From the NCBI GenBank assembly GCA_027031765.1, contig JALVPN010000165.1, positions 7,993 to 71,992 on the forward strand: a stretch of DNA of 64,000 bases, written 5' to 3'. Positions 16,251-64,000 of this stretch are shown one piece after another. The notes under the pieces were generated by a model. That model was not told the DNA's origin and ran no database searches. It worked only from the letters and a program-made list of their open reading frames with translations. How positions within the stretch are numbered: position 1 is the stretch's first letter; each line of letters begins with the position of its first letter. The position numbers and the translations under genes are program-made. Origin of the DNA: Promethearchaeota archaeon (GTDB lineage Archaea; Asgardarchaeota; Thorarchaeia; Thorarchaeales; Thorarchaeaceae).

Positions 16251-16259
16251 GAAAAAAAA
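16251..16259 (-). terminator. Oligo-T tract (T9 on minus strand), a candidate archaeal intrinsic terminator
   Basis: A9 on the plus strand equals T9 on the coding strand. It sits about 85 nt downstream of the surface-protein stop codon and upstream of the GT4 gene. Confidence 0.4.
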
Positions 16260-16343
16260 AGAGGATGGGAAGGCCTAGGCCTCCCCAGCCTGTCGTGGTT
16301 GTTGGGTGCTGTTGGTGTGCCAATGCAGTGCAGACAGGGCTTT

Positions 16344-45503: not shown

Positions 45504-47261
45504 TCACTTCCAGCGCTTCCTTGCGTACTCAACAATCTTCCTTAGGTCATCGATGCCAGTCGTTCTAGCCCCTTCTCTGATATACAGAATCTTCTTCTGT
45601 TTCTTCAGCATCAAGACCGGTTCATCTGCCGGTCTTACGTCAACACGACAGATTTCTTTGTCGTCAACTTGTGGAAACGTGGTGCGGAAAAACTGTCGGA
45701 ACATACCTTGGACTTGGCTGTTGAACTTCTGAGTCAAGGATCTGTCAAAGGTATCGGAGCTTGGTTCGTGATGAAAGCAGGAGTAGTCTCGCTCTAGGCC
45801 AAGTATCTCCCCGTCATTCCCGACTCCGATAAGGAGTACACCGCCATCCGAGTTCATGAATGCGCAGATTGTCTTTATCACGGGGTCGTATAATTCACTA
45901 TTCTTCCCTTGGAGATTGTAGTCCCACAACATCGATGACTTGAACTCGATGAACTGGGACTCCCCCATCTCTATCAACTCCTCGACAGTGGCCCGTTGGA
46001 CTCTCTCAAGTGATGGTGCCCTTGGCCTTGTGTAGAGGTACAGTGCCGCGCATAGCACGGCAAGTGCCACGCTCCACTCGATGACGCGGTAGACAACCAT
46101 TTGCAGCCTGGTTGTGGGCAAGAATGACTTGGGCACTCTGATAATGTATCCGTTCGTCGTTCCAAGATATAGATGGCCACGATCGTATCCCGGAATGAGG
46201 ATTGACTCAAGAACTTCAGGATACCGGCCCATTGTGAGCTCTTCCCTGCTAATCATTGGAGTGACTGACTGGGCATTGTCATCCAAGTCGATGTATGCAA
46301 GTCCCAATGCTGTGACCACATACAACCGCTTGAGGTCTACATCGATGTCAATAGCGTTCACAACTCTCGATGGCAATCCGTCATCACTCGTCAGGCGAGA
46401 ACGAACTAACGTTGCGCTAGTTCCGTTCTCGTCGAAGATGAATAGTCCCTCATTTGTCCCTATGTAGATTCTATGGGTGAGTTGGTAGTAGTCTATGCAA
46501 CTGACACTTAGAGGGTTCCCTACATCGTCTTGGATATGGCTGAAGTTCACGCCGGTTCTCAGATTGAAGAACGCAAAACCCCTGCCTGTGCCAGCAAGAA
46601 GGCAGTCACCACGCACTTTGAGCGACCGTACATTGTTTGAGGGCAGACCATTCTCAGTTGTGATGTTTCGGGTTTGATACGTGGATGGAGCGTACTCAAC
46701 AACCCCGATCTGCTCGCTTCCAAGGTACAATACGGTGTCTGATCCATTACGGAATGTTTCAATGTCCCGAAACTCTACGTCCTCTCCTATGTTTGGGATT
46801 CGGATGGGATCGAATACTACTCGCTGGTTCTCATAGGACCAGTGCATCCAATAGGCTCCTCCATCTGGTCCATCCGTGACCACGTAGCTTAGCCATCTAT
46901 CCCATGTTGTTCCCATATCGTATACTCTGCTGCCACCTGTTGCACTGTCAACTGAATGAGGCCCAGATACAGAGTTGTTAGAGAGGTTGACATAGTAGAG
47001 ACCGCCTATTCCGTTGAAGGCTATCATAGACTCGGCAGCATCGAGGAATATCATTGGCCTGATGCTGTACCCCGGGAAACCATTATCTACATGTGTCCAC
47101 TGCAGGTCCTCAGAGGCTGGCTGAACAAGCCATCGGTCAACACTGGCCGTAGCAGGGAATACCACCATGAATACTATCACAAGCCTGAGGAATCGCTTGT
47201 CAGACCTTAGTTCTCCGAGTTTCGCAAACACTCCTCCTTGTGCTTTTGTTCTGCCCATCAT
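45504..47261 (-). CDS. Membrane receptor: extracellular Reg_prop beta-propeller, TM, cytoplasmic AlbA_2/Schlafen-like domain
   Basis: N-terminal signal anchor. Sequon-rich repeats carry 'ENGLPSNNVRSL' and 'SDDGLPSRVVNAI' (Reg_prop). A TM helix follows, then 'ESQFIEFKSS...ICAFMNSDGGVLLIGVGNDGEILG' (AlbA_2/PF04326-like). Confidence 0.65.
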   Translation of the reverse strand: MMGRTKAQGGVFAKLGELRSDKRFLRLVIVFMVVFPATASVDRWLVQPASEDLQWTHVDNGFPGYSIRPMIFLDAAESMIAFNGIGGLYYVNLSNNSVSGPHSVDSATGGSRVYDMGTTWDRWLSYVVTDGPDGGAYWMHWSYENQRVVFDPIRIPNIGEDVEFRDIETFRNGSDTVLYLGSEQIGVVEYAPSTYQTRNITTENGLPSNNVRSLKVRGDCLLAGTGRGFAFFNLRTGVNFSHIQDDVGNPLSVSCIDYYQLTHRIYIGTNEGLFIFDENGTSATLVRSRLTSDDGLPSRVVNAIDIDVDLKRLYVVTALGLAYIDLDDNAQSVTPMISREELTMGRYPEVLESILIPGYDRGHLYLGTTNGYIIRVPKSFLPTTRLQMVVYRVIEWSVALAVLCAALYLYTRPRAPSLERVQRATVEELIEMGESQFIEFKSSMLWDYNLQGKNSELYDPVIKTICAFMNSDGGVLLIGVGNDGEILGLERDYSCFHHEPSSDTFDRSLTQKFNSQVQGMFRQFFRTTFPQVDDKEICRVDVRPADEPVLMLKKQKKILYIREGARTTGIDDLRKIVEYARKRWK

Positions 47262-48160
47262 ACAGCCCCCAGAAACCATAGAACAGCATAGGTTGCATTT
47301 ATCGTGGCATGTAGAGCCCATGGTTGTGTCAGGTTCTCAGACAAAAGCCACACCATACCCAGCAGAATCCCTAGCCCAAACCTCGTTATGAACGCCGCAA
47401 GAACCGAACCTACCGGATCGAAGATATTACCAACGTACTGGGCGTTAGTGAACAGATGACAAACCGCAAAGAGAGAAGAAGCTAGCAACAGCCCTATGGG
47501 CTTGCTCCGGAATCTCTCGGACAGGCGCTGTTGGACTATAGCCCTGTTGACCAGCTCCTCGACAAATCCAATAATGACCCCTCCGTAGACCACTAGTCCC
47601 ATGAGCCCGACTAATCGCTCAGGGCTGGCAAGGGTTGGGAATTGGTCAATGACCGGCAACAATCGAATTCCAAAGGATATCATGATTACTACCAGCAGGA
47701 AGATAGGCAGGCTACTGGTCCTCCAAGGTTCTCCACCTCGGATTCCCAGTGATTCCAATGAGTAGCCAAAACCACGCCAGAAGATCACGGCAATCGCCAG
47801 ACCTGTAAGGAGAATGGCAATGCTGGCAGAAAGGATGTCAAGGCTTGGAAAGAAACTGAAGAACCACCATCCAACATCGAGATAGATCACTAAAGCGAGT
47901 ACTGCCTCTTCAATAGGGTTTCTAGACAGCTTCTCAGGTCGCTTCAGGTGCTGGCTGTGACTCCACAGAAGTGCGCTGCATCCAATGACATTCAATGCCC
48001 CAAGCACGACAATGTATGATTCAGAATACATGATTGCATATGCCAAACTCGAGGATGTCACCAGAGCCGCCAAGAGAATGATCGCCTTGATATCGCGAGG
48101 GTTCAGTTGAGTTTGTTGCTCCTCTGCCACCTTCGTCACCCCTGCTGGGTGACCCCCCAT
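47258..48160 (-). CDS. CPBP-family intramembrane metalloprotease (CAAX protease/Abi-like)
   Basis: Motif 1 'GFVEELVNRAIV', motif 'FAVCHLF', terminal 'HATINA'. An ATGA-type 4-nt overlap with the downstream receptor gene indicates an operon. Confidence 0.7.
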   Translation of the reverse strand: MGGHPAGVTKVAEEQQTQLNPRDIKAIILLAALVTSSSLAYAIMYSESYIVVLGALNVIGCSALLWSHSQHLKRPEKLSRNPIEEAVLALVIYLDVGWWFFSFFPSLDILSASIAILLTGLAIAVIFWRGFGYSLESLGIRGGEPWRTSSLPIFLLVVIMISFGIRLLPVIDQFPTLASPERLVGLMGLVVYGGVIIGFVEELVNRAIVQQRLSERFRSKPIGLLLASSLFAVCHLFTNAQYVGNIFDPVGSVLAAFITRFGLGILLGMVWLLSENLTQPWALHATINATYAVLWFLGAV

Positions 48161-48275: not shown

Positions 48276-49637
48276 ATGATTAGTAAATTCATCGACCGTG
48301 ACGCCGAGCTCTCTCTGCTTGAAAAGGAGTGGAGGGGGCATGGTGGGAAGCTCTTGGTCCTGTACGGTCGAAGGCGGGTTGGCAAGACCAGACTCCTAGC
48401 TGAGTTCGTCCAAGGAAAGGATGGCGTGTTCTATATTGCGAGCGACTCATCACCGCAAGTCCAGATTGAAGAGCTCAAGACGAGAGTTGCGGACTTCCTC
48501 AACGATGCGTTGCTGAGAGACCTTGAACTCAAGAACTGGGAGCAGTTCTTTGAGTATCTTACGAGGAATCTGCCGTCCAAGAGGTTCTATCTCATACTGG
48601 ATGAGTTCTCCTATCTTGTCAAGAGCGATCGGACGATTATCAGTGTTTTGCAAAGGGTATGGGACAGAGTCTTGTCAAATTCCAAGGTCTTCTTGGTACT
48701 GTGTGGATCGGTAATGGGCCTAATGAGGGATGAGGTGCTCTCCTCGGCATCTCCTCTGTATGGTCGGCGAACAAGGGACATCCTACTGAGGGACTTGCCA
48801 TTCAAGCACGCAAGAGAGTTTGTTTCCTTCCCGTTTGCGGAGGCAATGCAGCTGTACTTTGCAGTTGGCGGCGTACCGGAGTATCTGCAGAAGGCATCAG
48901 AGTACCACAGCATGAATGAGTTTCTCAGCCGGGAGTTCTTCAGCACCACGGGATACTTCTATCGCGAGCCGTATTTCATAGTGTCACAGGAGTTCAGGGA
49001 GCTGAGAATCTACTTCTCGATTCTCAATGCTATTGCCACCGGGAGAACACGCCCGACCGACATAGCCAACTTTGTGGGGATTAACGCCCGAAGCGTATAT
49101 CCGTACCTGGAGGGGCTCATTCGGATGGACTTTGTCAAGCGGGAGATACCCGTTCTTGGGAGCCCCAAGCGAGGCGTCTACCGGATCAAGGACTCCCTCC
49201 TTGACTTTTGGTTCGGCTTTGTCTTTGGCCATCGGGATGAGATTGAGCGGGGCTCACTGAACCTAGACAACCTGGATCTGTCAGCCTACTATGGGAGGCG
49301 ATTCGAGGAGTTCGTGAGGAGTGAGGTCGTCCACCTGCTGTTCAACTACACCAAGATGGGACGATGGTGGCATCGTGGTGAGGAGATCGACATTGTTGCG
49401 GTGAACGACTCTGCCAATGAGATACTCTTCTGTGAGTGCAAGTGGAGCGACCTCAAGAAGAGGGAGGCCGAGCAACTCATTCAGGGCTTGCAGCAAAAGG
49501 CGAGGCTCGTGAGCTGGGGCACGGAATCAAGGGTGGAGAGATTTGGCGTGGTCGCACGTAGAGTGCGGGGAAAGGAGGGCCTCCGAAGTCAGGGCTATGT
49601 CGTGTACGATCTGCAGGACATCAAGAGTGTGCTGTAA
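48276..49637 (+). CDS. Archaeal ATPase (Arch_ATPase AAA+ with DUF234 C-terminal domain)
   Basis: 'FIDRDAELSLLEKEW...LLVLYGRRRVGKTRLL' and 'YLILDEFSYL'. The C-terminal region resembles DUF234. Confidence 0.75.
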   Translation: MISKFIDRDAELSLLEKEWRGHGGKLLVLYGRRRVGKTRLLAEFVQGKDGVFYIASDSSPQVQIEELKTRVADFLNDALLRDLELKNWEQFFEYLTRNLPSKRFYLILDEFSYLVKSDRTIISVLQRVWDRVLSNSKVFLVLCGSVMGLMRDEVLSSASPLYGRRTRDILLRDLPFKHAREFVSFPFAEAMQLYFAVGGVPEYLQKASEYHSMNEFLSREFFSTTGYFYREPYFIVSQEFRELRIYFSILNAIATGRTRPTDIANFVGINARSVYPYLEGLIRMDFVKREIPVLGSPKRGVYRIKDSLLDFWFGFVFGHRDEIERGSLNLDNLDLSAYYGRRFEEFVRSEVVHLLFNYTKMGRWWHRGEEIDIVAVNDSANEILFCECKWSDLKKREAEQLIQGLQQKARLVSWGTESRVERFGVVARRVRGKEGLRSQGYVVYDLQDIKSVL

Positions 49638-51622: not shown

Positions 51623-52606
51623 CTATCGGTCTGACGCGAGCCGCCGCTTCGCGATGACCGCCACAAAGACGATGGCACCCGCTGCTACGACAGTTCCTGC
51701 AGTGACGGGACCAAGCATTGGGTTGGTGATCTCACTAGTGTTGTTTGCTGTCGTTGTGTCTGTTGTTTCGGTCGATGTTGTGGTGCTGTTCGTGGTCACA
51801 GTGTCCCATATGGACTGCTGGAGAATGAAGAGCAGCGTCCCATTTGACGTATAGTGAAAGTATGTCGGCCAAGCCTGTATGCTCTCATGATCCTGTGCTG
51901 TGAGGTTGAATGCTGCAACGGACCATGTTGGCCTCAAGAGCATCTCCTTTGTGTAGAAAGGTGCCTTGTATATGCAGAACATGGTCGCCGACTCCGTCGG
52001 GTCAGTGAGATACTCTGGGTCCGCACCCGGATAGTACATCGGATAGCCCGGAAGTGGTCTGTGAGTGGTCGGACTGATGAGCACCAGTGAACGAATCCTT
52101 GCCTCGGCCAATGTAGTCCTGAGAACCTCTACGTGAGAGCACTCCAGATCATCCAGTGTGACTGTCTGGGTCCTGACCACTCTCCTAGTCAGGGTCCCAT
52201 TGTCTTGAGAACAGCGGTACGTCACGATCAGTTCGATGAAGTACGTCTGATTGAAGCCCCATACAAACAAGGGATGTTCTCCAGGCAGAGAGTAGCCTGC
52301 AATCTCAAAACCCGAGCTCAAGTGGGAGAGTGGCCGAACTGCATCAACAAGTGACTGGTTGGTCATCAGGTCTGGTACTCTCTCTTCCATCATTTCCGTC
52401 ACATTAACTACTTCGTACTCATACGACGCTCCGTCTATGGTGATATTGAGCGAGGCTGAAGGCCCCACTTCTGCTGTGTCACAGTATGTGCCATCAACTG
52501 TATGCATTGACTCCGAAGCGACGGGATACGGCAGAATGGTGGTTAAGGTCAACACCAGAGCAAACATGAGTGCAATAGCCCATTGTCTGTACACGTACAC
52601 TCGCAT
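51623..52606 (-). CDS. Secreted Thr-rich surface protein with C-terminal TM anchor (copy 2)
   Basis: Signal peptide. It shares 'TIDGASYEYEVVNVTEMMEERVPDLMTNQSLVDAVRPLS' with the 53110-54105 gene. A Thr-rich linker precedes the C-terminal TM plus 'KRRLASDR'. Confidence 0.55.
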   Translation of the reverse strand: MRVYVYRQWAIALMFALVLTLTTILPYPVASESMHTVDGTYCDTAEVGPSASLNITIDGASYEYEVVNVTEMMEERVPDLMTNQSLVDAVRPLSHLSSGFEIAGYSLPGEHPLFVWGFNQTYFIELIVTYRCSQDNGTLTRRVVRTQTVTLDDLECSHVEVLRTTLAEARIRSLVLISPTTHRPLPGYPMYYPGADPEYLTDPTESATMFCIYKAPFYTKEMLLRPTWSVAAFNLTAQDHESIQAWPTYFHYTSNGTLLFILQQSIWDTVTTNSTTTSTETTDTTTANNTSEITNPMLGPVTAGTVVAAGAIVFVAVIAKRRLASDR

Positions 52607-52612
52607 ATCCTC

Positions 52613-53017
52613 CTAGTACCGGTTTGGCCCTACGTAGGCCACCATGTGCCTGACATCGCCGCCGTACCTGGGGTGGACGGGGTTGTACTGAGATGGGAGA
52701 AGAAGCCCGTCTGTGGGATCCTTGTCGTATGGGGAGTTGGATTGACCGTCGAGGCCATCGTCAAGGCAAGACCATATCTGGAAGAACCTGTAGCCAAAGT
52801 TCACACGGTAGTATGCTGTCTGGTTCCAGAGGTGAAGCGTGGGATCCGCGTGGATCCATGTCCACTCTGAGCCATCATGCTGTTCCCACGTATTCCAGAA
52901 CCAATCAAACTCCTGCGGGTCGTATGAGTCCCAGCCCCACAAGGTGAGAGAACTCAACCAGTTGCTGTCCAGCACTGTCTTCGTCTTTCTCTCCACGTTT
53001 ATCTGAATGGCGGTCAC
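52613..53017 (-). CDS. Truncated paralog (C-terminal domain only) of the transglutaminase-like protein
   Basis: The 134-aa ORF is about 75% identical to the last ~110 aa of the 54112-55599 protein ('FDWFWN.WEQHDGSE.TWIHADPTLHLWNQTAYYRVNFGYRFFQIWSCLDD'). It lacks the catalytic core. It may be a pseudogene fragment or a free-standing domain. Confidence 0.4.
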   Translation of the reverse strand: MTAIQINVERKTKTVLDSNWLSSLTLWGWDSYDPQEFDWFWNTWEQHDGSEWTWIHADPTLHLWNQTAYYRVNFGYRFFQIWSCLDDGLDGQSNSPYDKDPTDGLLLPSQYNPVHPRYGGDVRHMVAYVGPNRY

Positions 53018-53109
53018 TTCACACCGCTCCTATACCACAATGCACAGTTGTGTTCGCCAGTGGACTCACCTGACATTGCGTGGCCTATGAGTGCAATGGT
53101 ACTGCAGCG

Positions 53110-54105
53110 TCATGAGTTTCCTCGCCTCGACCTTGCCAGTATTGCGACTGCCATGAAGGTGACGGCCACTGAAACAGTTCCTACAATGACGGGATTAGGC
53201 AATGGGTTGACAATCTCACTAGTGTTGTTTGCTGTTGTTCTGTCTGTTGTTTCGGTTGATGTTGTGGTATCACTTGTTGTTGTGGTACAATTCGTGACTG
53301 GTGGGCAGAGTGGAATCTGTTCAAGGATAAGGAGTAACGTTCCGTTTGATGTATAGATGAAGAGTACTGGCCAAGCTCTTGTGTTGTTGTCTAGTGGTGC
53401 CGTGAGGTTGTAAGCCATGACAAACCATGTCGGTTCAAGAAACATCTCCTTTGTGAAGAAGGACGCCCTGTACATGCAGGCCCAACCCCACTCACTCGGG
53501 TCGGTGAGGTTCCCTGGGTCACGGCCGAGCTCGTAGAGTGGGTAGCCTGGAAGAGGTCTGTGAGTGATTGGACTGACGAGCTCTAGCGAACGATTCCTTG
53601 CCTCGACCAATGTAGTCCTGAGAATCTCTATGTGAGAGCACTCTAAATCATCCAGCGTGATTGTCTGGATTCCAACCACTCTCCGTACAAAGCTCCCGTT
53701 GTCTTCGGAACAGCGGTACGTTACTACCAGCTCGATGAAGTCTGTCTGATTGAACCCCCATACGGAGATGGTGTGTTCACCTGGCCAGTAGTAGCCCGTA
53801 CCTGCAAAGCCAGAACTCATGCCTGAGAGTGGCCGAACTGCATCAACAAGTGACTGGTTGGTCATCAGGTCTGGTACTCTCTCTTCCATCATTTCCGTCA
53901 CATTAACTACTTCGTACTCATACACTGTTCCGTTTATGGTGATGTTGAGCGAGGGCGAAATGCCCGTGTCTGCCTCGCCACTCTCCTTGCCACCGCTTGT
54001 TGGGGGTGAATCTGGGGCAACGGGATATGGTGAAACGGCAGCCAATGCCAATAGTAGAGTAACCATGAGCACCGCAACCGGGTATCTGAGTATGTACATT
54101 AACAC
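53110..54105 (-). CDS. Secreted Thr-rich surface protein with C-terminal TM anchor (copy 1)
   Basis: Signal peptide 'MLMYILRYPVAVLMVTLLLALAAVSP'. Many sequons, 'TTTSDTTTSTETTDRTTANNTSE', C-terminal TM plus 'RSRRGNS'. Confidence 0.55.
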   Translation of the reverse strand: MLMYILRYPVAVLMVTLLLALAAVSPYPVAPDSPPTSGGKESGEADTGISPSLNITINGTVYEYEVVNVTEMMEERVPDLMTNQSLVDAVRPLSGMSSGFAGTGYYWPGEHTISVWGFNQTDFIELVVTYRCSEDNGSFVRRVVGIQTITLDDLECSHIEILRTTLVEARNRSLELVSPITHRPLPGYPLYELGRDPGNLTDPSEWGWACMYRASFFTKEMFLEPTWFVMAYNLTAPLDNNTRAWPVLFIYTSNGTLLLILEQIPLCPPVTNCTTTTSDTTTSTETTDRTTANNTSEIVNPLPNPVIVGTVSVAVTFMAVAILARSRRGNS

Positions 54106-54111
54106 ATCCTC

Positions 54112-55599
54112 CTAGTACTGGTTTGGTCCTGCGTAGTCTATTGTGTACTTGACATCCCCTCCATACTTGGGGTAGAGCGAGTTGTAGTGATATGGGAGGA
54201 GAAGCCCATCTGTGGGATCCTTGTCGTAGGCGGAAACAGATGGGTCGTTGAGTTTGTCGTCGAGGCAAGACCATATCTGGAAGAACCTGTAGCCAAAGTT
54301 CACACGGTAGTATGCTGTCTGGTTCCAGAGGTGAAGCGTAGGATCCGCGTGGATCCATGTCAACTCTGAGCCATCATGCTGTTCCCACATATTCCAGAAC
54401 CAATCAAACTTCTGCGGGTCATCTGGATCCCAGTCCCACGAGGTGTACGGGTTCTGGTATTCGAGTTCCCAGACTCTCCATGCGTCAACACGGGAGTACT
54501 GTTGCGCATTCTCATGCCACAACAGGCAGTTCTCCCACCATTGGTTCACAACGCTCCATATCTCACACCACGCGTGGGAGCTGGCTCTCACGTCTGTACC
54601 AAACATCTGTCGAGCCGGTATCCCCATTGACCTCAGCAATGAGATCTCCATATTCGATATTTCATCGCACATTCCCTCCCATCCTTCAGATATGATTCTC
54701 AAGTCCGACATTGAACACTCTGTCCGGTAAGCTGGCGTACCACTGCGAATCATCTTGTGATCTACGCAATACGTCATAATGACTGCTGCCCCACTGACAT
54801 AAGGCACACGATAGTCGTCAAGAAGATTTGCTGCGGCCCACCTAATGTTCCAGTCATCGCTGTGGAACAGGGCATACTGGTCTGGAATACCGAATCCATC
54901 GATGCTCCTGAGGCCCTCCCAGTAGTAGTCTGAATTGTTCGAGGCCTGCGACATGACATCCGCTGGTGGGGGAGTTGGCAGGTCGCTCGAACCAAAGGTC
55001 TGCACGAAATTGTATCCAAAGTCCTTGTAGAACACTGCAGCACCAACGCGCGCCACACCTCTCTTCACACCCACCGATGTCAGTGGAACCGTCACCTTCA
55101 GGTCCTTGGAACCGTAACCGTGTATGACACGCATTGAACCTGACACCGAGAACTCCTCTCTGTAGACCTCACGGGTTTCAAGGTCATACCCCTCGAACGT
55201 TACTGGGTAGGTTCCGGGTCTGTCACTGTCGGTCACACACTGGAACCTTATTGTCAGAGTCTTGCCTCTAGTCCAGACACTCGGCACTGTTACCCAGAAG
55301 TAGACCTCATGAAATCCCCTCGTGTTCGCATTATCGATGAGTCCGGCGCTTCTCAAGCGGGTGATAATCTCCTTGAAGCCCGGCATGGGGGCGGTCTTAG
55401 TATGCACGCGACGCAGGTCGACTCCCATGGACGCAAGGATGTCCTCGGGGACATTTGTCGCGACAAGGCATGGTCCAAGATCCTCATCAAGGAACACGGA
55501 TGGCGCCTCTCTCAGTGGTCTTGTTGTCCCTCTCGGGACCGGACAATCAGACGAACCGGCAAGAGGCACTACCTCTTGGGGGGGGGAGTGCATGAGCAT
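54112..55599 (-). CDS. Transglutaminase-like cysteine protease superfamily protein; N-terminus apparently frameshifted
   Basis: 'EGMCDEISNMEISLLRSMGIPARQMFGTDVRASSHAWCEIW' is the transglutaminase-core Cys...His arrangement. A signal-peptide-like segment is encoded in another frame just upstream, across a G9 tract. Confidence 0.65.
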   Translation of the reverse strand: MLMHSPPQEVVPLAGSSDCPVPRGTTRPLREAPSVFLDEDLGPCLVATNVPEDILASMGVDLRRVHTKTAPMPGFKEIITRLRSAGLIDNANTRGFHEVYFWVTVPSVWTRGKTLTIRFQCVTDSDRPGTYPVTFEGYDLETREVYREEFSVSGSMRVIHGYGSKDLKVTVPLTSVGVKRGVARVGAAVFYKDFGYNFVQTFGSSDLPTPPPADVMSQASNNSDYYWEGLRSIDGFGIPDQYALFHSDDWNIRWAAANLLDDYRVPYVSGAAVIMTYCVDHKMIRSGTPAYRTECSMSDLRIISEGWEGMCDEISNMEISLLRSMGIPARQMFGTDVRASSHAWCEIWSVVNQWWENCLLWHENAQQYSRVDAWRVWELEYQNPYTSWDWDPDDPQKFDWFWNMWEQHDGSELTWIHADPTLHLWNQTAYYRVNFGYRFFQIWSCLDDKLNDPSVSAYDKDPTDGLLLPYHYNSLYPKYGGDVKYTIDYAGPNQY

Positions 55600-55789
55600 C
55601 AGGACTGCTCAGTGCAGGCATCCCGGCAAAGCTAGAAACCACGAAGACACAGGTCACCACACAGGTGACCAGATACCGTTTGACAAGCATCCTACTCACG
55701 ATCTCACCGACAGAGTATTGCTGACAGAGCATATAAGAGTTCTGTGGCCAGAGCAGGAGATGGGGCCGACTGGTTCTCTCTGTTGGCAC
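55547..55789 (-). other. Out-of-frame N-terminal exon-like ORF encoding a signal peptide; likely 5' part of the transglutaminase-like gene
   Basis: 'MLVKRYLVTCVVTCVFVVSSFAGMPALS' is signal-peptide-like. It overlaps the 54112-55599 ORF across the homopolymer G9 at 55578-55586. Removing one G fuses the frames. Confidence 0.45.
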
Positions 55790-55941
55790 TCTCGGGACTC
55801 AACGCTTATCATATCTAGGCGTCTGGTGGTTCATTTTCCCTCACTGGCCTCTTCGGTCCGGACACTCTCTCCGTGGGCGGACTGACTGCGCCACCACAAG
55901 TCTTAATGATATGCCAGAGGATCGTGGTGACGGTGTCCAGC

Positions 55942-56406
55942 ATGAGAACCAAGTCGAGATACCCTGAGGTCATCGAATATCATGCCACATCAGACTGGGA
56001 TGGCAAGACTGGTGGCACAGCCACTGTGGGCGAGGGACGCACGATTGTCTACGACACACCGACGACCTACGGTGGGAACGGTCAGGGAATCTGTCCTGAC
56101 GAGATGTTTGTGGCTGCCATGCTCGGGTGTCTCAACAACACGTTCTTGGACTTCCAGCGCCGCTTTGAACTCGAACTAATCTCCATGAGGCTTGAGGGAA
56201 AGGCAGTGGCGCGGTTTGACAGTGAGGGTTATACAGTCACCGGGTTGCAGGTGCGCGACGAGGTTGTTGTGGAATAGGGTGGACTTGAAGTCGCCGAGCG
56301 GTGCGTTCAGCTGATGAAGAAGTACTGCCACCTGTCGCGCACGATCAAGGGCTGCCTCCCGTTTGAGTTCGATGTCAAGGTGCGCGAGGTCAAGCAGGAG
56401 TCTTGA
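55942..56406 (+). pseudogene. OsmC/Ohr-family protein interrupted by an in-frame TAG
   Basis: 'GGNGQGICPDEMFVAAMLGC' is the OsmC core. After TAG at 56275-56277 the same frame continues 'GGLEVAERCVQLMKKYCHLSRTIKGCLPFEFDVKVREV', matching the OsmC C-terminal 'KYCP.S..LKG' segment. Confidence 0.55.
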
Positions 56407-56701
56407 TCCTCAGTTCGTCCATCAGTTCAAGTATCTTCTCCATGTACCGTGTCATGTTCGTCCAGTAGGCCCCCTGAAAGTATACTGCATTGCATCTCTC
56501 GCAGAGCCAGAACACATCATAGTGTTTGTAGGTCTGTTCGAACACGAGATCCTTGACCCTTCTCCGTTCGTCACCCCGGAGTTCCACAAGCTCGCCATTG
56601 CACTTGGAACATCTCGCCCTTGACTCGTCTATCACCGGTTCTATCCCGAACTCCATGAACACCTTCGCCACGCCCTCATCTACACTTCCCCTCACAAGCA
56701 T
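56390..56701 (-). CDS. Mut7-C-like zinc-ribbon domain protein (probably truncated)
   Basis: 'CSKCNGEL...YDVFWLCERCNAVYFQGAYW' matches the C-terminal zinc ribbon of Mut7-C/DUF82 proteins. The N-terminal PIN-like half is absent. Confidence 0.4.
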   Translation of the reverse strand: MLVRGSVDEGVAKVFMEFGIEPVIDESRARCSKCNGELVELRGDERRRVKDLVFEQTYKHYDVFWLCERCNAVYFQGAYWTNMTRYMEKILELMDELRIKTPA

Positions 56702-57587
56702 GGCTGGAACACCGCTGATCGTGCTCTCTATCTCCAGCTGACTCACGAATGCTTGCAACTAGGTCCTCCCGCCCCCATGTCCTGCCCCTAAGCTCTCCAA
56801 GCGCTCGTCGCAACAAGCTTCTCTGTTTTACTGCATTCATGGGAATCTTGAGTATCGAGAAGTAGTCTCTGGTTGCAAAGCTGTTGCATCTGAGCCTGAG
56901 TGGCCAAATGCCATCGTTGCCACCCCGATTCACAGAGAACACGACAGCACGGTCTCCGAGATCCTCCTGCATCGCCACGTATTCGTCATGGGGATCCACA
57001 ATCACAATGGCAGCGCCGAGTTCCAACATCCGAGACGTAATGACTGCCACCGTGTTGCCCTTCCCACCACCTGTAAGCGACAATACTGCAAGATGCCTTG
57101 TAACAAGCTTTCCCACATCAAGTTTCACTCTTACGCCCTCATGTCCCATCAAACTTCCAATCTCGATATGACCCACCGAAAAGATCCTGCTCAGCAGTCC
57201 TGATGATGCTCTTGTAACCCTTGCTCTAGGCCGTGGCGAGAACCTAGGTGACACAATCTTGCCGTCTTCATCGATGTAGCCCACAACCTGTGCCTTGGCT
57301 GTAAGGACTTCGCCATCATGCAGGTCGCTGATACTAAGAAGAGTGGCGAACTCCTCTGGCCCCGTCAGGATTGACTCCGGCATGTTGAGGTTGACAAGTC
57401 CTATGTCTGTGACACGGGCCAACACTGGGTCGGTGACGTTTCGATTTGCGTATGTAATTGCCAAGTAGTCCCCCAGTCTGAGGGGATTACTCTCAGCAGT
57501 GGCTGCATCAAGTCTGACAACTACCTCCCTAGGTGTTGTGGTTCCCAAGAGGTTTCCTATCACGTGCTCCTTCGTCACTATATACAA
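56676..57587 (-). pseudogene. HerA/DUF87-like ATPase, N-terminal fragment only
   Basis: HAS-barrel-like N-terminus ('VVGYIDEDGKIVSPRF'), Walker A 'LTGGGKGNT', 'IVIVDPHDEYV'. The protein then ends after about 300 aa, with no Walker B or C-terminal domains. Confidence 0.45.
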
Positions 57588-57590
57588 CTC

Positions 57591-57899
57591 CTATCCGAAT
57601 CTCTCTCCCCTTTGCGTCCGCAGAATCACTCTTGCCGCCCTCATATCCATTCCAGCTACCTTTGCACGTATCTGGTCTATTCGTCGCTTTGCCTCTGCCT
57701 TGCTAATCGTGGCGCGTTTGTGCACTACATGAGAGTATGTGAAGTATCCATTCATGTCATGTGCTAGCACGAGGAATCTCTCAATCTTCTCGAGCTGGTC
57801 TGCTTGCAGCCTGGGAAAGTCAACGGCAAATGGCTGACCATGTGGTTTCAAGATTCCAAAGACCCTGCAGGCCTCACCAATCAGGCGTTGTACTGTCAT
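57591..57899 (-). CDS. Hypothetical small protein
   Basis: 102-aa ORF between the HerA fragment and the nuclease-like gene. No recognisable motif. Confidence 0.3.
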   Translation of the reverse strand: MTVQRLIGEACRVFGILKPHGQPFAVDFPRLQADQLEKIERFLVLAHDMNGYFTYSHVVHKRATISKAEAKRRIDQIRAKVAGMDMRAARVILRTQRGERFG

Positions 57900-58213
57900 C
57901 GACGCATCATGTGTTGCATAACGACGTTTTCCTTCGTGTCAATACGGCACTTGTGACGCTTCTTGATTACCACAATCACGACAAAGCACAATGACGATTG
58001 CCGCTCCTATGTAGAGCCACGGAATGGCCTGCTCTGTTGTTCATCCCCTTGTGAGACTACACGGATCTGTGTTTCGTTCCACCTATGGAGGACTATTCCT
58101 GCTGATGCGGACAACCAGCCATCTGTCTGTCCTGCTAGCCAAGGAGTACCCTCGACCCCGGTCTGGTGTGCAACTGCAGGACAGGACAGGACATGACTGG
58201 CTGTTCATCAGGA

Positions 58214-59155
58214 TTAGACAATCTCATGAATGGACCTGAACTCGTCATTGCTTTTCCAGCCGAGGTTCAGTGGGACTTCTAGGTCTCTTCGCAGCCGCTC
58301 CACGTATCTCAAGTCTTGCTTTTCCGGTCTTCTGTCGAGGACAATCAACCACCGGTCGTATGGTTCGCGTCCGGGGTAGAAGTTGTACTCAAAGACCTGC
58401 CCCATCGCCTCACGGATTGAACGTGTGACGCTCAAGCCGTACACGACTTTGAGTTCTGCCATGTGTGTTGTGCTGTCAGTCCTGAAAGCAACATCAATGC
58501 GGTTGTGTTCTAACCGGATGTCCTCTGCTCCCCGCTCCACCAGCCAGTCATAGAGACTGTTTGCGAGTCTACGGTGCCTCGGCTCGATTATCTTCATCAG
58601 TGCTGGAGTCACTCTCGTATAGTCCGACTCTGAGAGGTACTCATGAGTTCTAGGTCTCAGTGAGAACAGGCGGTCAATGTCTGGAATCCTGTCTGCCTTC
58701 CTGAGCTTGAACCTGAACACGCGTTGCCTCTCGCCATTCGGCATTCTGCGGGATGACTCGAAGTCCCTCTCGATACCTGTGATCCGCCAGATACCTTCGA
58801 ACCTCCATGGGTCGCCCTTCCTCTCACCTTTGAACTTCACAAACAGGTACACTGGGAACTCTTGGTAGTCCACCATGATCCTGTTGCCATAGCTCAGTCT
58901 CTGGTGCCCTTTTTCCGGGAGCCCGTCGCCTATGTAGTAGAACTGGTCGCTTCCTGGCTCGTACTCGTCGTCGTACAGTGCCTTAGCAAGGTTCATCTTG
59001 ATGAGGATGGCCTCCGGACTGTCCCTTGGTGCCAGCACTATCCCCCGCTGGAAGTTGCCCCCTGGCCTAGGCTCATACCCTGCAGCCAGTGCCATCTCGC
59101 TGTAATCGTAGCGTTCGCCCTCAATGAAGCCTCTCAGTTCCAACTTGGCCATCAC
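58214..59155 (-). CDS. Putative restriction endonuclease (N-terminal recognition domain + C-terminal PD-(D/E)xK)
   Basis: The C-terminal 'RIDVAF...THMAELKVVYG' fits the D...ExK nuclease motif. It is divergently arranged with an adjacent DNA methyltransferase. Confidence 0.5.
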   Translation of the reverse strand: MMAKLELRGFIEGERYDYSEMALAAGYEPRPGGNFQRGIVLAPRDSPEAILIKMNLAKALYDDEYEPGSDQFYYIGDGLPEKGHQRLSYGNRIMVDYQEFPVYLFVKFKGERKGDPWRFEGIWRITGIERDFESSRRMPNGERQRVFRFKLRKADRIPDIDRLFSLRPRTHEYLSESDYTRVTPALMKIIEPRHRRLANSLYDWLVERGAEDIRLEHNRIDVAFRTDSTTHMAELKVVYGLSVTRSIREAMGQVFEYNFYPGREPYDRWLIVLDRRPEKQDLRYVERLRRDLEVPLNLGWKSNDEFRSIHEIV

Positions 59156-59392
59156 CCCTTCTATAACTACTAGTAATGTGCTGCTGTGATATGAATCAAT
59201 CCTTGATATCGTCCCCAGTGCGTTTCGATGAACACTGCATTAGTTTCGGTCTTGGTCGCAGTACAGTTCCCACAAGATGACCGACCATGCCGGCTGGGTC
59301 AGTCCGGCAAGTGCAGGGAGGTTTCACCGGGGCCCAGCACTGTCCTGTCGAGTGTGCTGACCCGTTAGGACGGTACCAACTGCAAGAGTGAA

Positions 59393-60421
59393 ATGCAGGT
59401 GGACTCCTCTTACACCCGGACAAAGCCCAATACTTGCAAAAGATGTGTGGATGAAATGGTTCCGGAGCCGCAGGAGAGGTCGAGACGACGGTACATCCCG
59501 CACCTTGCGGCGTCCCGTTTCCGGCCTACAGAGGACTGGACGCACAGTGAGGCGCGAGACGCATTCTTAGCTGCCCGGTTCGACATTGATGTGGACACCG
59601 TGCACTATGAGGACTGCATCGAGGGCATGGAGCGCCTGCCGGACGGGTGTATTGATGTTGTGATTGCTGACCCGCCGTTTGGGATTTCATTCAGCGGGAA
59701 AGAGTCCCTGTACAACCGGGACTCAGGGCTGGTCGTCGATGGCTACCATGAGGTCGAACGGGACTATGCCGAGTTCACGGTCGAGTGGGTCAGCAAGCTA
59801 CCCCGGCTCCTCAAGGAAACGGGTTCGGCATGGATATTCAGCGGATGGACGAACCTGCGTGATGTGCTCAATGCTGTTGCGTTGAGTGGCCTCACTACGG
59901 TCAACCACATCATCTGGAAGTATCAGTTCGGGGTGTTCACACGCCGGAAGTTCGTGACGAGCCACTATCACCTGCTCTTCCTTGTCAAGGATCCGAAGCG
60001 CTACTACTTCAACAAGATACAGCACTATCCCCTCGATGTCTGGGAGATAAAGCGGACATACATGCGCGGCCAGGTCAAGAACGGGACGAAACTGCCCGAG
60101 CAACTCGTGATGCGCTGCATAGACTTCACATCACGCCCGGGAGACCTGGTACTTGACCCGTTCATGGGCAATGGTACCACTGCTGTGGCATGCAAGGGCT
60201 CCTTCAGACATTTCATCGGGTTTGAGATTAACCCGAACATGAGGGGGATTATAGAGTCGAACCTCTCCCTGATTGGGCCTGGCGACCTGTACGTCCCATA
60301 CTCGGCACGGAGTGACCCCCTTGTTGACAGTGCTAAGAAGAAGTTCTTTGAACCGGAGGGCCCGCACCGGGACCGCAAGGGCGACCAGTCATCCATAGAA
60401 CACTGGACAGGCCCTGATTGA
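59393..60421 (+). CDS. DNA methyltransferase, beta-class (N4-C/N6-A family, PF01555-like)
   Basis: Motif IV 'VVIADPPFG' precedes motif I 'VLDPFMGNGTTAVA' (the beta permutation). The start is uncertain and may be an internal Met. Confidence 0.8.
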   Translation: MQVDSSYTRTKPNTCKRCVDEMVPEPQERSRRRYIPHLAASRFRPTEDWTHSEARDAFLAARFDIDVDTVHYEDCIEGMERLPDGCIDVVIADPPFGISFSGKESLYNRDSGLVVDGYHEVERDYAEFTVEWVSKLPRLLKETGSAWIFSGWTNLRDVLNAVALSGLTTVNHIIWKYQFGVFTRRKFVTSHYHLLFLVKDPKRYYFNKIQHYPLDVWEIKRTYMRGQVKNGTKLPEQLVMRCIDFTSRPGDLVLDPFMGNGTTAVACKGSFRHFIGFEINPNMRGIIESNLSLIGPGDLYVPYSARSDPLVDSAKKKFFEPEGPHRDRKGDQSSIEHWTGPD

Positions 60422-60749
60422 CACGGGCCCGGCACCACGGCCACACTACGGTACCACGTTGTTGTCTCTCAGTCCATGGTCGTCCGCCCGGATTGACAGG
60501 ACATGGCACTCGGGGTGACCTCTCACTCCCGACCCCACACAAGGCCTATTGCGTCACTGTGTGACGCCGCATAGTGGTCGCTGGGCATGGTCTCTTCTAA
60601 GGGTTGCACTGTCGAGTCCCTGACATCGCTGTAACCATCAGTGGCCCGCTCTCGGGTCGCCCCCCTGGATACCCGTGATTCTGGTACGGGGGAACAGGGC
60701 CCATCAATGGTTCTGCTCCCGAGTACCAACTGTGCTCTTGGTGTCTTTC

Positions 60750-61001
60750 CTACTCCCTGCGGCTCTTGGTCTGTTCGTAGGCCTCCCAGCTCTCGGCGGC
60801 GGTGGAGTGCCCACGTGACCTGAGCTCTGTAAGGACATGCTCGCGTATTGCTGGGCTCTCGATGACATCTTCCTTTCTGGCCTCGAGGGATGCAGCAATC
60901 TCGCGGGCAATCTCATATGGTGCACCAGCCCTTACGGCACTGACGACTATCTTCTCTGGCATGAAGGGCTCCATTGAGCCATTTCTTTTCTTTACCCGCA
61001 T
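60750..61001 (-). CDS. ATP-cone domain protein (stand-alone)
   Basis: 'MRVKKRNGSMEPFMPEKIVVSAVRAG...IAREIAASLEARKEDVIESPAIREHVLTELRSRG' follows the ATP-cone consensus (V.KR.G..E.F...KI). Confidence 0.55.
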   Translation of the reverse strand: MRVKKRNGSMEPFMPEKIVVSAVRAGAPYEIAREIAASLEARKEDVIESPAIREHVLTELRSRGHSTAAESWEAYEQTKSRRE

Positions 61002-61157
61002 GTCTGTTCACCTGTGAAATGAACGTGTTGTATTGGCCCAGAACCACTTAAGGGTTGGCCTTCCATGGTACGGTGAGGTCTCACTCCTACCAGGGTGTCC
61101 CTTGGCCCGCCTCCCGCAGTGTGGATTACTCCCAGCAGACCGGATGACGATGTGGGA

Positions 61158-61622
61158 CTAAATGGGCAGTGTGCGTACCTCTTTCATGCACTTGAACACT
61201 GCAATCGTCTTGGTTCTCCTGACGCCCTCCACATTCCTCAGCTTTCCAATCACGAAGGTCCCCACATCCTCTATGCTCTTGGTCTTCACCTTCAACAGCA
61301 GATCCCAGTCGCCAGCAATTATATAGACCTCGGTGACCTCGGGGAATGCTGCTATCCTCTCGGCAATCGCCTCTTGTGAGAACTCCACACCGCTGAGGTA
61401 CTCCACCGCGACCAGTATTATGGCAGTCGTTGGTAAGCCCAGCTTGTCGTGGTCGAGCGTAGCAATGTAGCCTGTTATCACACCGTCCCTCCTCATTCTC
61501 TTTATCTTGTCATACACCGTCGTTATTGGCATCCCCAGCCTCTTTGCAATGTGCTTGATTGGCTGTCTGCAGTCCTCCTGCAGGATTCTCAACAATGCTA
61601 GGTCGGCCTCGCTGAGCTTCAT
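61158..61622 (-). CDS. Lrp/AsnC-family transcriptional regulator
   Basis: 'LSEADLALLRILQEDCRQPIKHIAKRLGMPITTVYDKIKRMRRDGVI' HTH plus a C-terminal RAM domain. Confidence 0.85.
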   Translation of the reverse strand: MKLSEADLALLRILQEDCRQPIKHIAKRLGMPITTVYDKIKRMRRDGVITGYIATLDHDKLGLPTTAIILVAVEYLSGVEFSQEAIAERIAAFPEVTEVYIIAGDWDLLLKVKTKSIEDVGTFVIGKLRNVEGVRRTKTIAVFKCMKEVRTLPI

Positions 61623-61714
61623 GTGTCCGGAAGAATTACGGAATCGATATGAATCTTAGCATCTGTTATGGAACAATTACATATTATCCGTAGAATATTA
61701 CATGTGCGACCTGA

Positions 61715-62719
61715 GTGCCTGTGCTCTCGGTGTCTGAAATGTCACACGAGACAAGTGAGTTGGACTCCACAGTGCCCCCATTCCTGTCGGTCCGGACCGA
61801 GCGGTCGAGGGCAGTGCTCAGGGTCCAGGACAGGGTCATGGGCGCGGTCAGGAAGTTCTTTGAAGGTGTGAAGTTTTATGAGGTGCGGCCAGCAGTCATC
61901 GGGCCTGTGACAGACCCCGGGATCCGCGGGGCCGGGATTGCTTCGTTCGACTACTATGGTCATCGCTACGTGATCACGAGCAGTATGATCCTCTACAAAC
62001 AGATGCTCATTGCGGCTCTGGTCAGGGTGTTCATCTTCTCACCGTGTGTCCGTCTGGAGAAGGAACGGACAGACCGCCACCTGACAGAGTTCGTGCAGGT
62101 GGACGTTGAGGCAGCGCACCACTCCCGTGATGAGATAATGGACATAGCAGAGGCCCTCCTTGTGCATGTCATCAAGGATGTCCGGAGCAGCTGTCAGGAC
62201 GAGCTCCGCCTTCTCGGTCGTCGTCTCTCAGTACCAAGGACTCCTTTCAGGAAACTGACGTTCGATGATACGGCCGCCTTGGCCGAGGAGCTGGGCTACA
62301 GGGTCGAAGAGGGGACTGAACTACCGTTTGAGGCGGAGGTGGAGCTGTCGTCCCGCTTTGACGGCCCGTTCTGGGTCGTGGGCTATCCGACCAGTGCCCG
62401 GGGCTTCTACTACCGGCTCGACCCCAACAGTCCTGAGAGGCTGCTGGACTTTGACCTGATGTACCCCGAGGGCTTTGGTGAGGCGGCCTCCGGTGGTGAG
62501 CGTGAGTTCGAATATGACCGGGTCGTCAGGAGGTTGGCCGGTCAAGGCCTTGACAGCAGCCGGTTCAAGTGGTATCTCGACATGCTCAGGGTGGGGGTGC
62601 CACCATCTGCAGGGTTTGGTATTGGACTGGAGCGTCTGACAAGGTACATCTGTGGGCTCGACGACATTCGTGAGGCAACGCCGTTCCCCGCCGTACCCGG
62701 CACCACCCTGTACCCGTAG
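61715..62719 (+). CDS. Class II aaRS-like catalytic core without anticodon-binding domain (archaeal AsnA-type asparagine synthetase candidate)
   Basis: Class II motifs: 'VFIFSPCVRLE' (motif 2 region), 'GFGEAASGGEREFEYD', 'GFGIGLERLTRYI' (motif 3). The 334-aa protein lacks an N-terminal OB domain. Confidence 0.6.
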   Translation: MPVLSVSEMSHETSELDSTVPPFLSVRTERSRAVLRVQDRVMGAVRKFFEGVKFYEVRPAVIGPVTDPGIRGAGIASFDYYGHRYVITSSMILYKQMLIAALVRVFIFSPCVRLEKERTDRHLTEFVQVDVEAAHHSRDEIMDIAEALLVHVIKDVRSSCQDELRLLGRRLSVPRTPFRKLTFDDTAALAEELGYRVEEGTELPFEAEVELSSRFDGPFWVVGYPTSARGFYYRLDPNSPERLLDFDLMYPEGFGEAASGGEREFEYDRVVRRLAGQGLDSSRFKWYLDMLRVGVPPSAGFGIGLERLTRYICGLDDIREATPFPAVPGTTLYP

Positions 62720-62806
62720 TCGCCAGCCCTTCAGTCCCCGGTGCAGACTGCACCCTCGGCTGAGCACGGTACCCTTGACAGAGGGTATCTGGTACCGGGG
62801 CCCTTA

Positions 62807-63772
62807 TCATGACGCAGATGCTACCCCCCTAGGGGCTCCCAATGTCCCCTGTACGATCTGGTTGGCCATCTGCATTGCTGCCTGTTTCTCCATCGGATAT
62901 GCGAGGAAGTCCCTGAGATGTTCCTCGTCAAACGTTTCCGGCAGGGAGCCGAAGAATATGTGGTTGAGAAGCGGCGACAGTTCACCGCAGTCCTCTCCCC
63001 TCATATACATCACCGGTACCAGCGTCCGGAGTTCCCTGTGCATGCTCTCCACCCACCTCTTGATGGGCTGCGCTGCATCTACAAAGTGCTCCAGTATCAT
63101 GGTTGGGGAGCCGTACTTCTTGGCCTTCAGCTCGAACACGAAGAGGTCACTCCCGACTATTGATATTGCGTCCAGTTCGTAGAGCCTGGTGTAGCCGGTC
63201 TTCGTTTCTTGGAGCAGACAGAAGTTGTTCAGGATCTGGCCGGCTGTCCAGCACCTGCGCAGCCTGTTTATCATTGGTGCCTCGTAGATACACCTGGTAT
63301 TGGCAGCTACGTTGCTGGAGAGCACGTATCTCCTGTTGCCGTCCACATACGTGAAGTGCACGACCCCGGGCTCATCCCCGCGGAACTCGCATCTCCTGTT
63401 GCCGTCCACATACGTGAAGTGCACGACCCCGGGCTCATCCTCACGGGACTTGCCACGTTTCCGACGGCGACCCCTCTTACGAGCTGCCTTCTCGATGGCC
63501 TCGTGAAAATCCGTCAGCTCGGGGACTGGGTGCTGGTCGATTGCGGCCACAAGCATGTCTCTGAGTTCCCTTATGGGTGTTGGTTTCTGTGGCGAGTACA
63601 GCCGACTGTGGACTCTTCCAATGAACTCTGGAGTGAACTTGCTAGCTGGAACGCAGATACGCATATCCCCTTCTTCATATACTACCACATTGCCTGCTAG
63701 GAGCAGGTGCCCAAACCCGTGCTCTGCAAGCAGTGATATGACTCTTGCAGCCACGAACTGTAGGTTTGCCAT
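62807..63772 (-). CDS. Hypothetical protein with possible PD-(D/E)xK-like motif and an internal 21-aa tandem duplication
   Basis: 'GSDLFVFELKAK' (D...ExK-like). The duplicated 'DEPGVVHFTYVDGNRR' segment follows a basic stretch 'KRGRRRKRGK'. Confidence 0.4.
   Translation of the reverse strand: MANLQFVAARVISLLAEHGFGHLLLAGNVVVYEEGDMRICVPASKFTPEFIGRVHSRLYSPQKPTPIRELRDMLVAAIDQHPVPELTDFHEAIEKAARKRGRRRKRGKSREDEPGVVHFTYVDGNRRCEFRGDEPGVVHFTYVDGNRRYVLSSNVAANTRCIYEAPMINRLRRCWTAGQILNNFCLLQETKTGYTRLYELDAISIVGSDLFVFELKAKKYGSPTMILEHFVDAAQPIKRWVESMHRELRTLVPVMYMRGEDCGELSPLLNHIFFGSLPETFDEEHLRDFLAYPMEKQAAMQMANQIVQGTLGAPRGVASAS
63328..63453. repeat. 63-bp tandem direct repeat (2 copies) inside a coding region
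   Basis: 'atctcctgttgccgtccacatacgtgaagtgcacgaccccgggctcatcc' occurs at 63328 and again at 63391, with divergence only at the unit ends. Confidence 0.75.
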
Positions 63773-64000
63773 TTACTCCACCTCCAGTTCCACATCTCTA
63801 TGTCCTGCATCTGGACAAATAAGCGTTTCCTGAACGTCCTAGCAGAGCGTTGCAGGGCCGACCGACTGGTCTCTCTGTGCCCCGCCATGTGCGTCCAGAA
63901 TTGCCACTCCCGAGTCTACAGCAGCGTGACCTCTGGGTGGTTATTGCCCACGACACATTGGACCTACAGCTGCAACTACAGAGTGATGCCAGTTGTCGGA

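Follow-up and report, generated by a model that had tools for sequence, protein, structure and literature searches.

A run of nine cytosines separates a signal peptide from a transglutaminase-like enzyme in a Thorarchaeaceae genome and probably marks a recent slippage mutation

The DNA considered here, called the window throughout, is a stretch of 64,000 nt from a Promethearchaeota archaeon of the Thorarchaeaceae (assembly GCA_027031765.1, contig JALVPN010000165.1, positions 7,993 to 71,992). Its acyl-CoA dehydrogenase is 92% identical to proteins named Thorarchaeota, and among the matches listed between 92% and about 78% identity all those that bear an organism name are Thorarchaeota. The window contains a gene for a transglutaminase-like enzyme that changes reading frame, just after the region encoding its signal peptide, at a run of nine identical bases. 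The question raised by this locus is whether the interruption is a real mutation, a functional element, or an error in the sequence. We consider it likely that it is a genuine and recent slipped-strand +1 insertion that uncouples the enzyme from its secretion signal, giving either a young pseudogene or an off state. The elements that define the locus are as follows.

55547..55690, minus strand: upstream open reading frame (ORF) of 47 codons, from ATG 55690-55688 to TGA 55549-55547
55578..55586, minus strand: C9 run, the site of the frame change, encoding Pro-Pro(-Pro) in the linker after the signal peptide
54112..55599, minus strand: transglutaminase-like ORF of 495 codons, with a match to Pfam PF01841

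The run reads G9 on the plus strand and C9 on the coding strand, where it occupies codons 35-38 of the precursor. The upstream frame is MLVKRYLVTCVVTCVFVVSSFAGMPALSSPDAHALPPPRGSASCRFV*, closed by the TGA at 55549-55547, and the 495-codon frame is the +1 frame, which opens only past a TGA at 55611-55609. Therefore, the frame must change within the 59 nt between 55608 and 55550, and the C9 tract falls inside this sole permissible interval, as had been proposed in a preliminary description of the window. The same description held that deletion of one G, or addition of two, would restore a single protein, and this was reproduced when tract lengths were modelled: C8 gave a fused protein of 525 aa and C11 one of 526 aa (with the junction peptides ALPPQEVVPLAG or ALPPPQEVVPLAG), whereas C6, C7, C9 and C10 gave stubs of 39-47 aa.

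The tract is the longest G/C run of the window. Elsewhere in the 38 long ORFs, which amount to 42.8 kb of coding sequence, homopolymers reach 6 nt at most, and the remaining long runs, namely C8 at 1880-1887, A9 at 16252-16260 and A7 at 51133, are all intergenic. Two runs of at least 9 nt were observed in the 64 kb compared to 0.41 expected under a third-order Markov model, a number reached in 6 of 100 simulations. A long run is by itself statistically unremarkable; it is the position that is striking. There are three runs of at least 8 nt in the 64 kb, and by our arithmetic the chance that one of them lies within a given 59-nt interval is about 0.002-0.003. The CCC-CCC pair at the tract is the only one among the 40 Pro-Pro pairs in the coding sequence of the window, in which CCC makes up 26% of the Pro codons. 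As for the intergenic runs, A9 (T9 on the minus strand) lies between two minus-strand genes, directly downstream of a 647-aa ORF, at the position where an archaeal oligo-T terminator would be expected, and C8 is found in a G+C-rich spacer ahead of a TPR-like gene at 1993.

The 47-codon ORF encodes MLVKRYLVTCVVTCVFVVSSFAGMPALSSPDAHALPPP, followed by the out-of-frame residues RGSASCRFV. By inspection and hydropathy, its N-terminus has the parts of a Sec-type signal peptide (a basic n-region, an h-region of 10-20 residues and a small-x-small c-region), which are the n-region MLVKR, the h-region YLVTCVVTCVFVVSSFAG and a c-region ending in AHA; the tail PRGSASCRFV is out of frame. The Kyte-Doolittle maximum over 15 residues was 2.44 for the repaired protein and 2.19-3.23 for homologues, compared to 0.99 for the 495-aa ORF alone. 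The upstream signal-peptide ORF of the preliminary description, given there as 55547-55789, is real, but a start at GTG 55789 is only a mechanical one: the likely start is ATG 55690-55688, which yields M-L-V-K-R and a hydrophobic N-terminus, as in the homologues. A hexamer read from the sequence upstream of this ATG is a possible archaeal TATA box.

55731..55736, minus strand: TTATAT hexamer, 41 nt upstream of ATG 55690

The hexamer is located within a 180-nt divergent intergenic region shared with an OsmC-like gene (55873-56277, plus strand). The public gene calls on an ENA scaffold that covers this region (scaffold_495, see below) include a 97-aa ORF at window 55592-55885 (plus strand), which runs antisense across the signal-peptide region and extends into the beginning of the OsmC-like gene. 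This is probably a spurious shadow ORF, behind which the real 5′ end of the enzyme gene is hidden.

The downstream ORF had been described as transglutaminase-like, and the Pfam Transglut_core model (PF01841) bears this out with a score of 36.3 bits against a cut-off of 23 (E=7.5e-9) over residues 271-355; a PF01841 match is also precomputed for all 8 homologues. The catalytic triad consists of Cys311 (54669-54667), His342 (54576-54574) and Asp419 (54345-54343). In the family alignment the His is invariant, the Cys is kept wherever the segment is covered, and the Asp is replaced by Glu in one homologue. The family profile also matches the Cys-His-Asp region of the yeast peptide:N-glycanase (PNGase) structure 1x3w, with E=1.5e-6 over about 75 residues. 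Members of the family are rare: 8 relatives came from a word-indexed search of 5.8 billion proteins, and 17 clusters at E<=1e-30 from a HMMER profile search of 1.84 billion representatives. The sole named relative is from Candidatus Thorarchaeota, and the closest homologue is 41% identical. A search of NCBIfam gave no match for the enzyme or for the glycoprotein encoded next to it, and the AlphaFold2 model built from the shallow alignment was poor (mean predicted local distance difference test score 48, predicted template modelling score 0.37). Judged by sequence, the locus encodes an extracytoplasmic enzyme of the transglutaminase fold (Cys-His-Asp) that belongs to a small, mostly archaeal family. 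A Trp-rich insertion of about 57 residues (…NCLLWHENAQQYSRVDAWRVWELEYQNPYTSWDWDPDDPQKFDWFWNMWEQHDGSELT…; window 54346-54573, minus strand, residues about 350-414) separates the catalytic His from the Asp; it is missing from all seven aligned homologues, and its C-terminal part is also found in a remnant copy of the gene (see below).

The preliminary description favoured a fused, secreted form of the enzyme and suggested a comparison with orthologues as a check. We made this comparison on 27 homologues, taken from a first protein search (6 of 7 with a signal), from related loci (2) and, by selection, from a profile search (12 of 18 with a signal), and it supports the fused form. An in-frame basic n-region followed by a hydrophobic h-region was present in about 20 of the 27, as judged by a 15-residue hydropathy maximum of at least 2.19 near the N-terminus. 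The non-Met starts or partial hydrophobic segments of the exceptional homologues suggest that these are 5′-truncated gene calls. Full-length homologues have, in order, an N-terminal signal or anchor, a variable linker, and the conserved block P-x-V-F-x-D-x-x-L-G-x-C-x-(V/I)-S-T-N-I-P, which in the enzyme of the window is APSVFLDEDLGPCLVATNVP, 26 codons past the run. As deduced from the alignment, the native architecture is a signal peptide, a variable Pro-rich linker, a β-rich N-domain and a catalytic core, the fused form is the native one, and the C9 run lies in the variable linker that joins the signal peptide to the mature enzyme. None of the aligned homologues has a split arrangement or a frameshift: all are in frame and lack the tract.

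A search for related loci with a 6-sequence alignment in the GTDB representative genomes and JGI metagenomes found only two paralogues, in one other archaeal metagenome-assembled genome (MAG), and did not recover the species of the window itself in these collections. The two homologous genes of this MAG contain no run longer than 6 nt, and at most 4-5 nt in the first 330 nt. The MAG is that of the uncultured archaeon SRP214966_co7_247 (JGI Ga0315553), with the enzyme genes at L003 1548-3446 and L004 6169-9141. The encoded enzymes, of 691 and 682 aa, have an extra C-terminal domain of about 220 residues, and their genes adjoin those of very large surface proteins that are rich in repeats and anchored in the membrane at the C-terminus. 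An association with proteins of the cell surface may be a trait of the family.

The break in the gene is unlikely to be an accident of the assembler. The ENA assembly ERZ23491057 (from BioSample SAMN10217873) contains the region on scaffold_495 (43,758 bp), which also has C9 at the tract (L008 18187-18195) and is 100.000% identical to window 52807-64000 over 11,194 bp, with no gaps. This is a separate assembly because it is fragmented differently: it is broken at about 43.43 kb of the window (scaffold_336 ends at 43,436), where the 84,924-bp contig of the window is continuous. The public gene calls start the enzyme at GTG 55497-55495, giving a product of 461 aa, and this exact truncated product is carried by three contigs. 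Exact look-ups of the C8 and C11 fused proteins, and of the stubs of other lengths, found none among about 15 billion proteins.

The mechanism that we propose for the slipped-strand +1 insertion is that replication slippage lengthened a C8 tract (CTC-CCC-CCC-CAA, Leu-Pro-Pro-Gln) by one C to C9, which would be the dominant genotype in the sampled Thorarchaeota population. Translation from ATG 55690 would then end after 47 codons and the enzyme ORF would be left with no signal peptide of its own, so that the secreted enzyme would not be made, or at most a signal-less form would arise from an internal start codon. The lesion would be recent, because the 495 codons are still open and the triad is intact, with no further degenerative lesions (stops, deletions or lost catalytic residues) found, and it would be reversible in principle, because a 9-nt run mutates fast. 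What would result is a young pseudogene, located in an accessory region, or, alternatively, a de facto on/off tract in its off state. As in a pseudogene, the sequence is disrupted relative to intact homologues: the frameshift uncouples the signal peptide, and the homologues are continuous. Of the three explanations offered in the preliminary description (sequencing or assembly error, pseudogene, phase-variable tract), the error became the less likely one through the C9 of the second assembly and the three contigs, and a pseudogene and an off phase are separable only with reads. Taken together, the mutation is probably slippage of the ordinary kind, and the gene of an exported family is probably switched off or dying in this genome.

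Several points weigh against this interpretation. Besides the window, only scaffold_495 is readable at the tract, and the third of the three contigs is probably the window's own 84,924-bp contig. The two assemblies may share reads, which makes a shared systematic sequencing error conceivable. There is no close orthologue from which an ancestral length of the tract could be read (41% identity at best). An ORF open over 495 codons is equally expected from an artefact, a programmed event or an off phase. Finally, plain mutation leaves unexplained an unusually stable hairpin right past the run.

55499..55573, minus strand: predicted RNA hairpin, with the first paired base 4 nt past the run and the main stem from about 8 nt

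The genes next to the enzyme bear on how it may have been lost, and those directly downstream on the same strand are the following.

53110..54105, minus strand: glycoprotein gene, co-oriented with the enzyme gene; public call of 329 aa from ATG 54099
52613..53017, minus strand: remnant of the enzyme gene, 134 codons, the last 110 residues sharing 76% identity with the C-terminal end of the complete enzyme
51623..52606, minus strand: paralogue of the glycoprotein gene, 62% aa identity to 53110-54105

The protein encoded at 53110-54105 combines a signal peptide with numerous N-x-S/T sequons, a stalk rich in Thr and a membrane anchor at the C-terminus. Its gene is probably co-transcribed with the enzyme gene, because the sequence GGAGGA directly follows the enzyme stop codon, ahead of the glycoprotein gene. 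The remnant retains the Asp motif WIHADPT and lacks the Cys and His regions. The paralogue at 51623-52606 likewise encodes a signal peptide and a C-terminal membrane anchor, in agreement with the earlier remark that other potential surface proteins of the window carry predicted signal peptides. These genes form a tandem duplication of about 1.5 kb of an enzyme-plus-glycoprotein unit (window 51623-55599, minus strand), with repeat blocks that are 72-87% identical in nucleotide sequence, in which the second unit consists of the remnant and the paralogue.

The locus lies in a region, from about 43.4 kb to about 58 kb, with a GC content of about 0.49-0.53, compared to about 0.58 elsewhere. Defence-type genes abound there, including the following.

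43387-44994: OLD-family nuclease, a defence-type gene
45504-47321: Schlafen/AlbA_2 protein, a defence-type gene
48276-49637: ATPase_2/DUF234 protein, a defence-type gene
58214-59155, probably the ORF in question: SRA_ScoMcrA-like protein, a defence-type gene, from a precomputed Pfam match on the 312-aa call of scaffold_495; a Pfam scan of the 313-aa ORF of the window gave nothing
59393-60421: N6/N4 methylase, a defence-type gene

In window 56390-57587 (minus strand), a HerA-like gene is truncated: its product has 303 aa, the DUF87 match breaks off at profile position 145 of 220, and the gene overlaps a Mut7-C fragment that begins at profile position 65 of 146. In the profile matches this looks like a deletion that joined two gene remnants, with no homopolymer involved, and the arrangement is identical in the ENA assembly. 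The lower-GC accessory region shows decay and turnover, and therefore a real loss-of-function mutation in it is unsurprising.

At the edge of this region, three other assemblies of the same species (ENA scaffold_336, NCBI GCA_029855965.1 JAGSHO010000283.1 and Logan SRR13622960) end within 12 bp of one another, at window 43,424-43,436, just inside the start of the OLD-family nuclease gene; by coordinate arithmetic, scaffold_495 resumes near 44.38 kb. The segment of about 43424-44380 may be strain-variable or repeated. The idea that the lower-GC region is absent from the other assemblies was rejected: the ENA assembly holds it on scaffold_495, so the end at this point is a contig break.

An adaptive form of the slippage interpretation is that the tract is a selected phase-variable (contingency) locus, at which switching among C8, C9 and C10 toggles secretion of the enzyme within a surface-protein cassette. 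Switching tracts of poly-G/C occur in Neisseria, Campylobacter and Helicobacter. Homopolymers biased to the 5′ part of genes are documented in prokaryotes as reversible inactivation switches (PMC2831843, PMC3315296). The tract is placed accordingly, in the 5′ coding region, where its length sets the frame (C8 and C11 ON; C6, C7, C9 and C10 OFF). At 9 nt, compared to a maximum of 6 nt in the 42.8 kb of other coding sequence, it is an outlier in length, and it holds the one CCC-CCC pair of the window. The gene encodes an exported enzyme and probably shares a transcript with the gene of a glycosylated surface protein, in a lower-GC region that is duplicated and lies beside defence-type genes. However, no variation in tract length was observed: the two readable assemblies agree on C9, the three contigs have the same product, and no ON form was found among the 15 billion proteins. 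The homologous genes of the related archaeon have no run above 6 nt (at most 4-5 in the first 330 nt), the 64 kb contain no second coding tract of such length, and chance alone could yield one C8 as CTC-CCC-CCC-CAA, given that CCC accounts for 26% of Pro codons. The locus therefore has the structure of a simple sequence repeat (SSR) switch and lacks the observed length variation expected of a phase-variable locus. We regard a selected switch as unlikely, and we give a similarly low rating to the broader proposal that the tract is functional rather than a lesion, be it as a contingency locus of an Asgard archaeon or as a +1/-2 recoding site aided by the hairpin.

It is also improbable that the true tract is C8, with the gene intact and the enzyme secreted normally. 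Homopolymers are classic sites of indel errors, the ORF is otherwise perfect, and the fused C8 protein fits the architecture of the family, as would be expected from an artefact of this kind. Against it stand, in addition to the recurrence of C9 in an assembly that is fragmented in another way and the three contigs with the same truncated product, the alignments of the window with four other contigs of the same species, which cover about 41 kb, include several C6/G6 runs, and have 0 gaps and 2 mismatches. The other long genes of the window have full-length Pfam matches, and no other broken gene of the window coincides with a homopolymer. Because there are no indels between the assemblies and the other long genes are intact, the consensus is of short-read quality, and for the same reasons a noisy long-read assembly was ruled out as the cause. 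This evidence counters a random consensus error and a noisy long-read assembly; it does not counter a systematic read error shared by both assemblies.

Far less probable is programmed recoding, in which C9 would be functional and the enzyme frame would be reached by a +1 or -2 ribosomal shift on CCC-CCC-CCA, or by slippage of RNA polymerase, with the hairpin as stimulator. A tRNA-Pro could re-pair in both the +1 and -2 frames, each of which leads to the enzyme frame; three consecutive Pro codons are known stall sites; and the out-of-frame state is the only one recorded. The hairpin begins a few nt past the run. For the 85 nt that follow the run, the predicted folding energy is -34.0 kcal/mol, a value reached by only 1.8% of 555 sense-strand coding windows, and a 141-nt fold gave z=-2.19 and was matched by 4 of 200 shuffles; these statistics are modest, come from a single sequence, and concern a window chosen after the fact. 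The frameshift is not conserved, since all homologues are in frame and lack the tract, and no rare, hungry or stop codon follows the shift site (AGA makes up 15% of the Arg codons in the ORFs of the window). A classical -1 shift was rejected as unproductive here, because the frame corresponding to C10 stops after two codons. For cellular genes of archaea, frameshifting is established only in fucA1, and there it is of the -1 type (PMC8211752).

The 5′ arm of the hairpin contains the 0-frame stop TGA, its 3′ arm contains the Shine-Dalgarno-like sequence GAGAGAGG (55513-55506), and GTG 55497-55495 is located just 3′ of the stem. The least probable explanation, that there are two real genes, one for a small secreted or membrane peptide from ATG 55690 and one for a cytoplasmic enzyme from ATG 55599 or GTG 55497, can draw on the spacing of 8 nt between GAGAGAGG and this GTG, on the public call that starts there, at the first conserved block, and on termination of the upstream ORF inside the hairpin, which could in principle expose the GTG, but the family is consistently exported or anchored, no homologue has a split arrangement, and the 19-residue tail past the signal peptide is in part an out-of-frame translation of the linker.

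In practical terms, the result is a correction of the annotation: the public call of 461 aa looks cytoplasmic and hides the export of the enzyme. It also draws attention to a rare and uncharacterised family of secreted transglutaminase-fold enzymes, whose members, where their context was seen, adjoin surface-protein genes in Asgard and related archaea. If reads were to show heterogeneity among C8, C9 and C10, the locus would become a concrete candidate for SSR-based phase variation in an Asgard archaeon, and if the tract is functional, it would be among the first documented cases of its kind in these archaea. SSR phase variation is well studied in bacterial pathogens. In archaea, SSR phase variation and frameshifting other than -1 have barely been explored (PMC11868660, PMC8211752), and how widely phase variation occurs among them has yet to be mapped (reviewed in PMC11868660).

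Compared to known systems, the enzyme resembles the transglutaminase-like superfamily PF01841 in its aligned core motifs G-x-C-D-E, H-A-W-x-E and H-A-D. The nearest solved structures by profile are peptide:N-glycanases (1x3w, 3esw, 2f4m), a microbial protein-glutamine gamma-glutamyltransferase (6g49) and a putative cysteine protease (3isr). The similarity is confined to about 75 residues around the triad, and the N-terminal β-rich domain and the C-terminal 'YDGPNNY' end are specific to the family of the window enzyme.

The fucA1 gene of Saccharolobus solfataricus (PMC8211752) is likewise an archaeal enzyme gene made up of two ORFs that overlap at a homopolymeric slippery site; a stem-loop is predicted downstream of that site, and full-length in-frame homologues are found elsewhere. 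It differs in that its site is an A/T-rich heptamer with a -1 shift, and its frameshift is conserved among close relatives, whereas the locus of the window has a poly-C tract at which only +1/-2 shifts would be productive, shows no conservation, and is known from its sequence.

Homopolymer frameshifts that switch or inactivate bacterial genes for surface or secreted proteins include those of the 5′ poly(A) tract of Listeria inlA (PMC2831843) and the homopolymer-tract variants of Mycobacterium tuberculosis (PMC10334774). The locus of the window differs from the bacterial SSR switches in its host, an Asgard archaeon, and in that the tract is single in 64 kb, has shown no length polymorphism, and is missing from relatives. 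It is like them in that a one-base change would toggle the gene between a full-length exported protein and a short stub, and in that the gene has a predicted extracytoplasmic function and sits in an accessory region. By analogy, the locus appears to behave like the homopolymer frameshift switches and inactivations of bacteria (PMC2831843, PMC3315296, PMC10334774) and to resemble the interrupted genes of archaea (PMC8211752).

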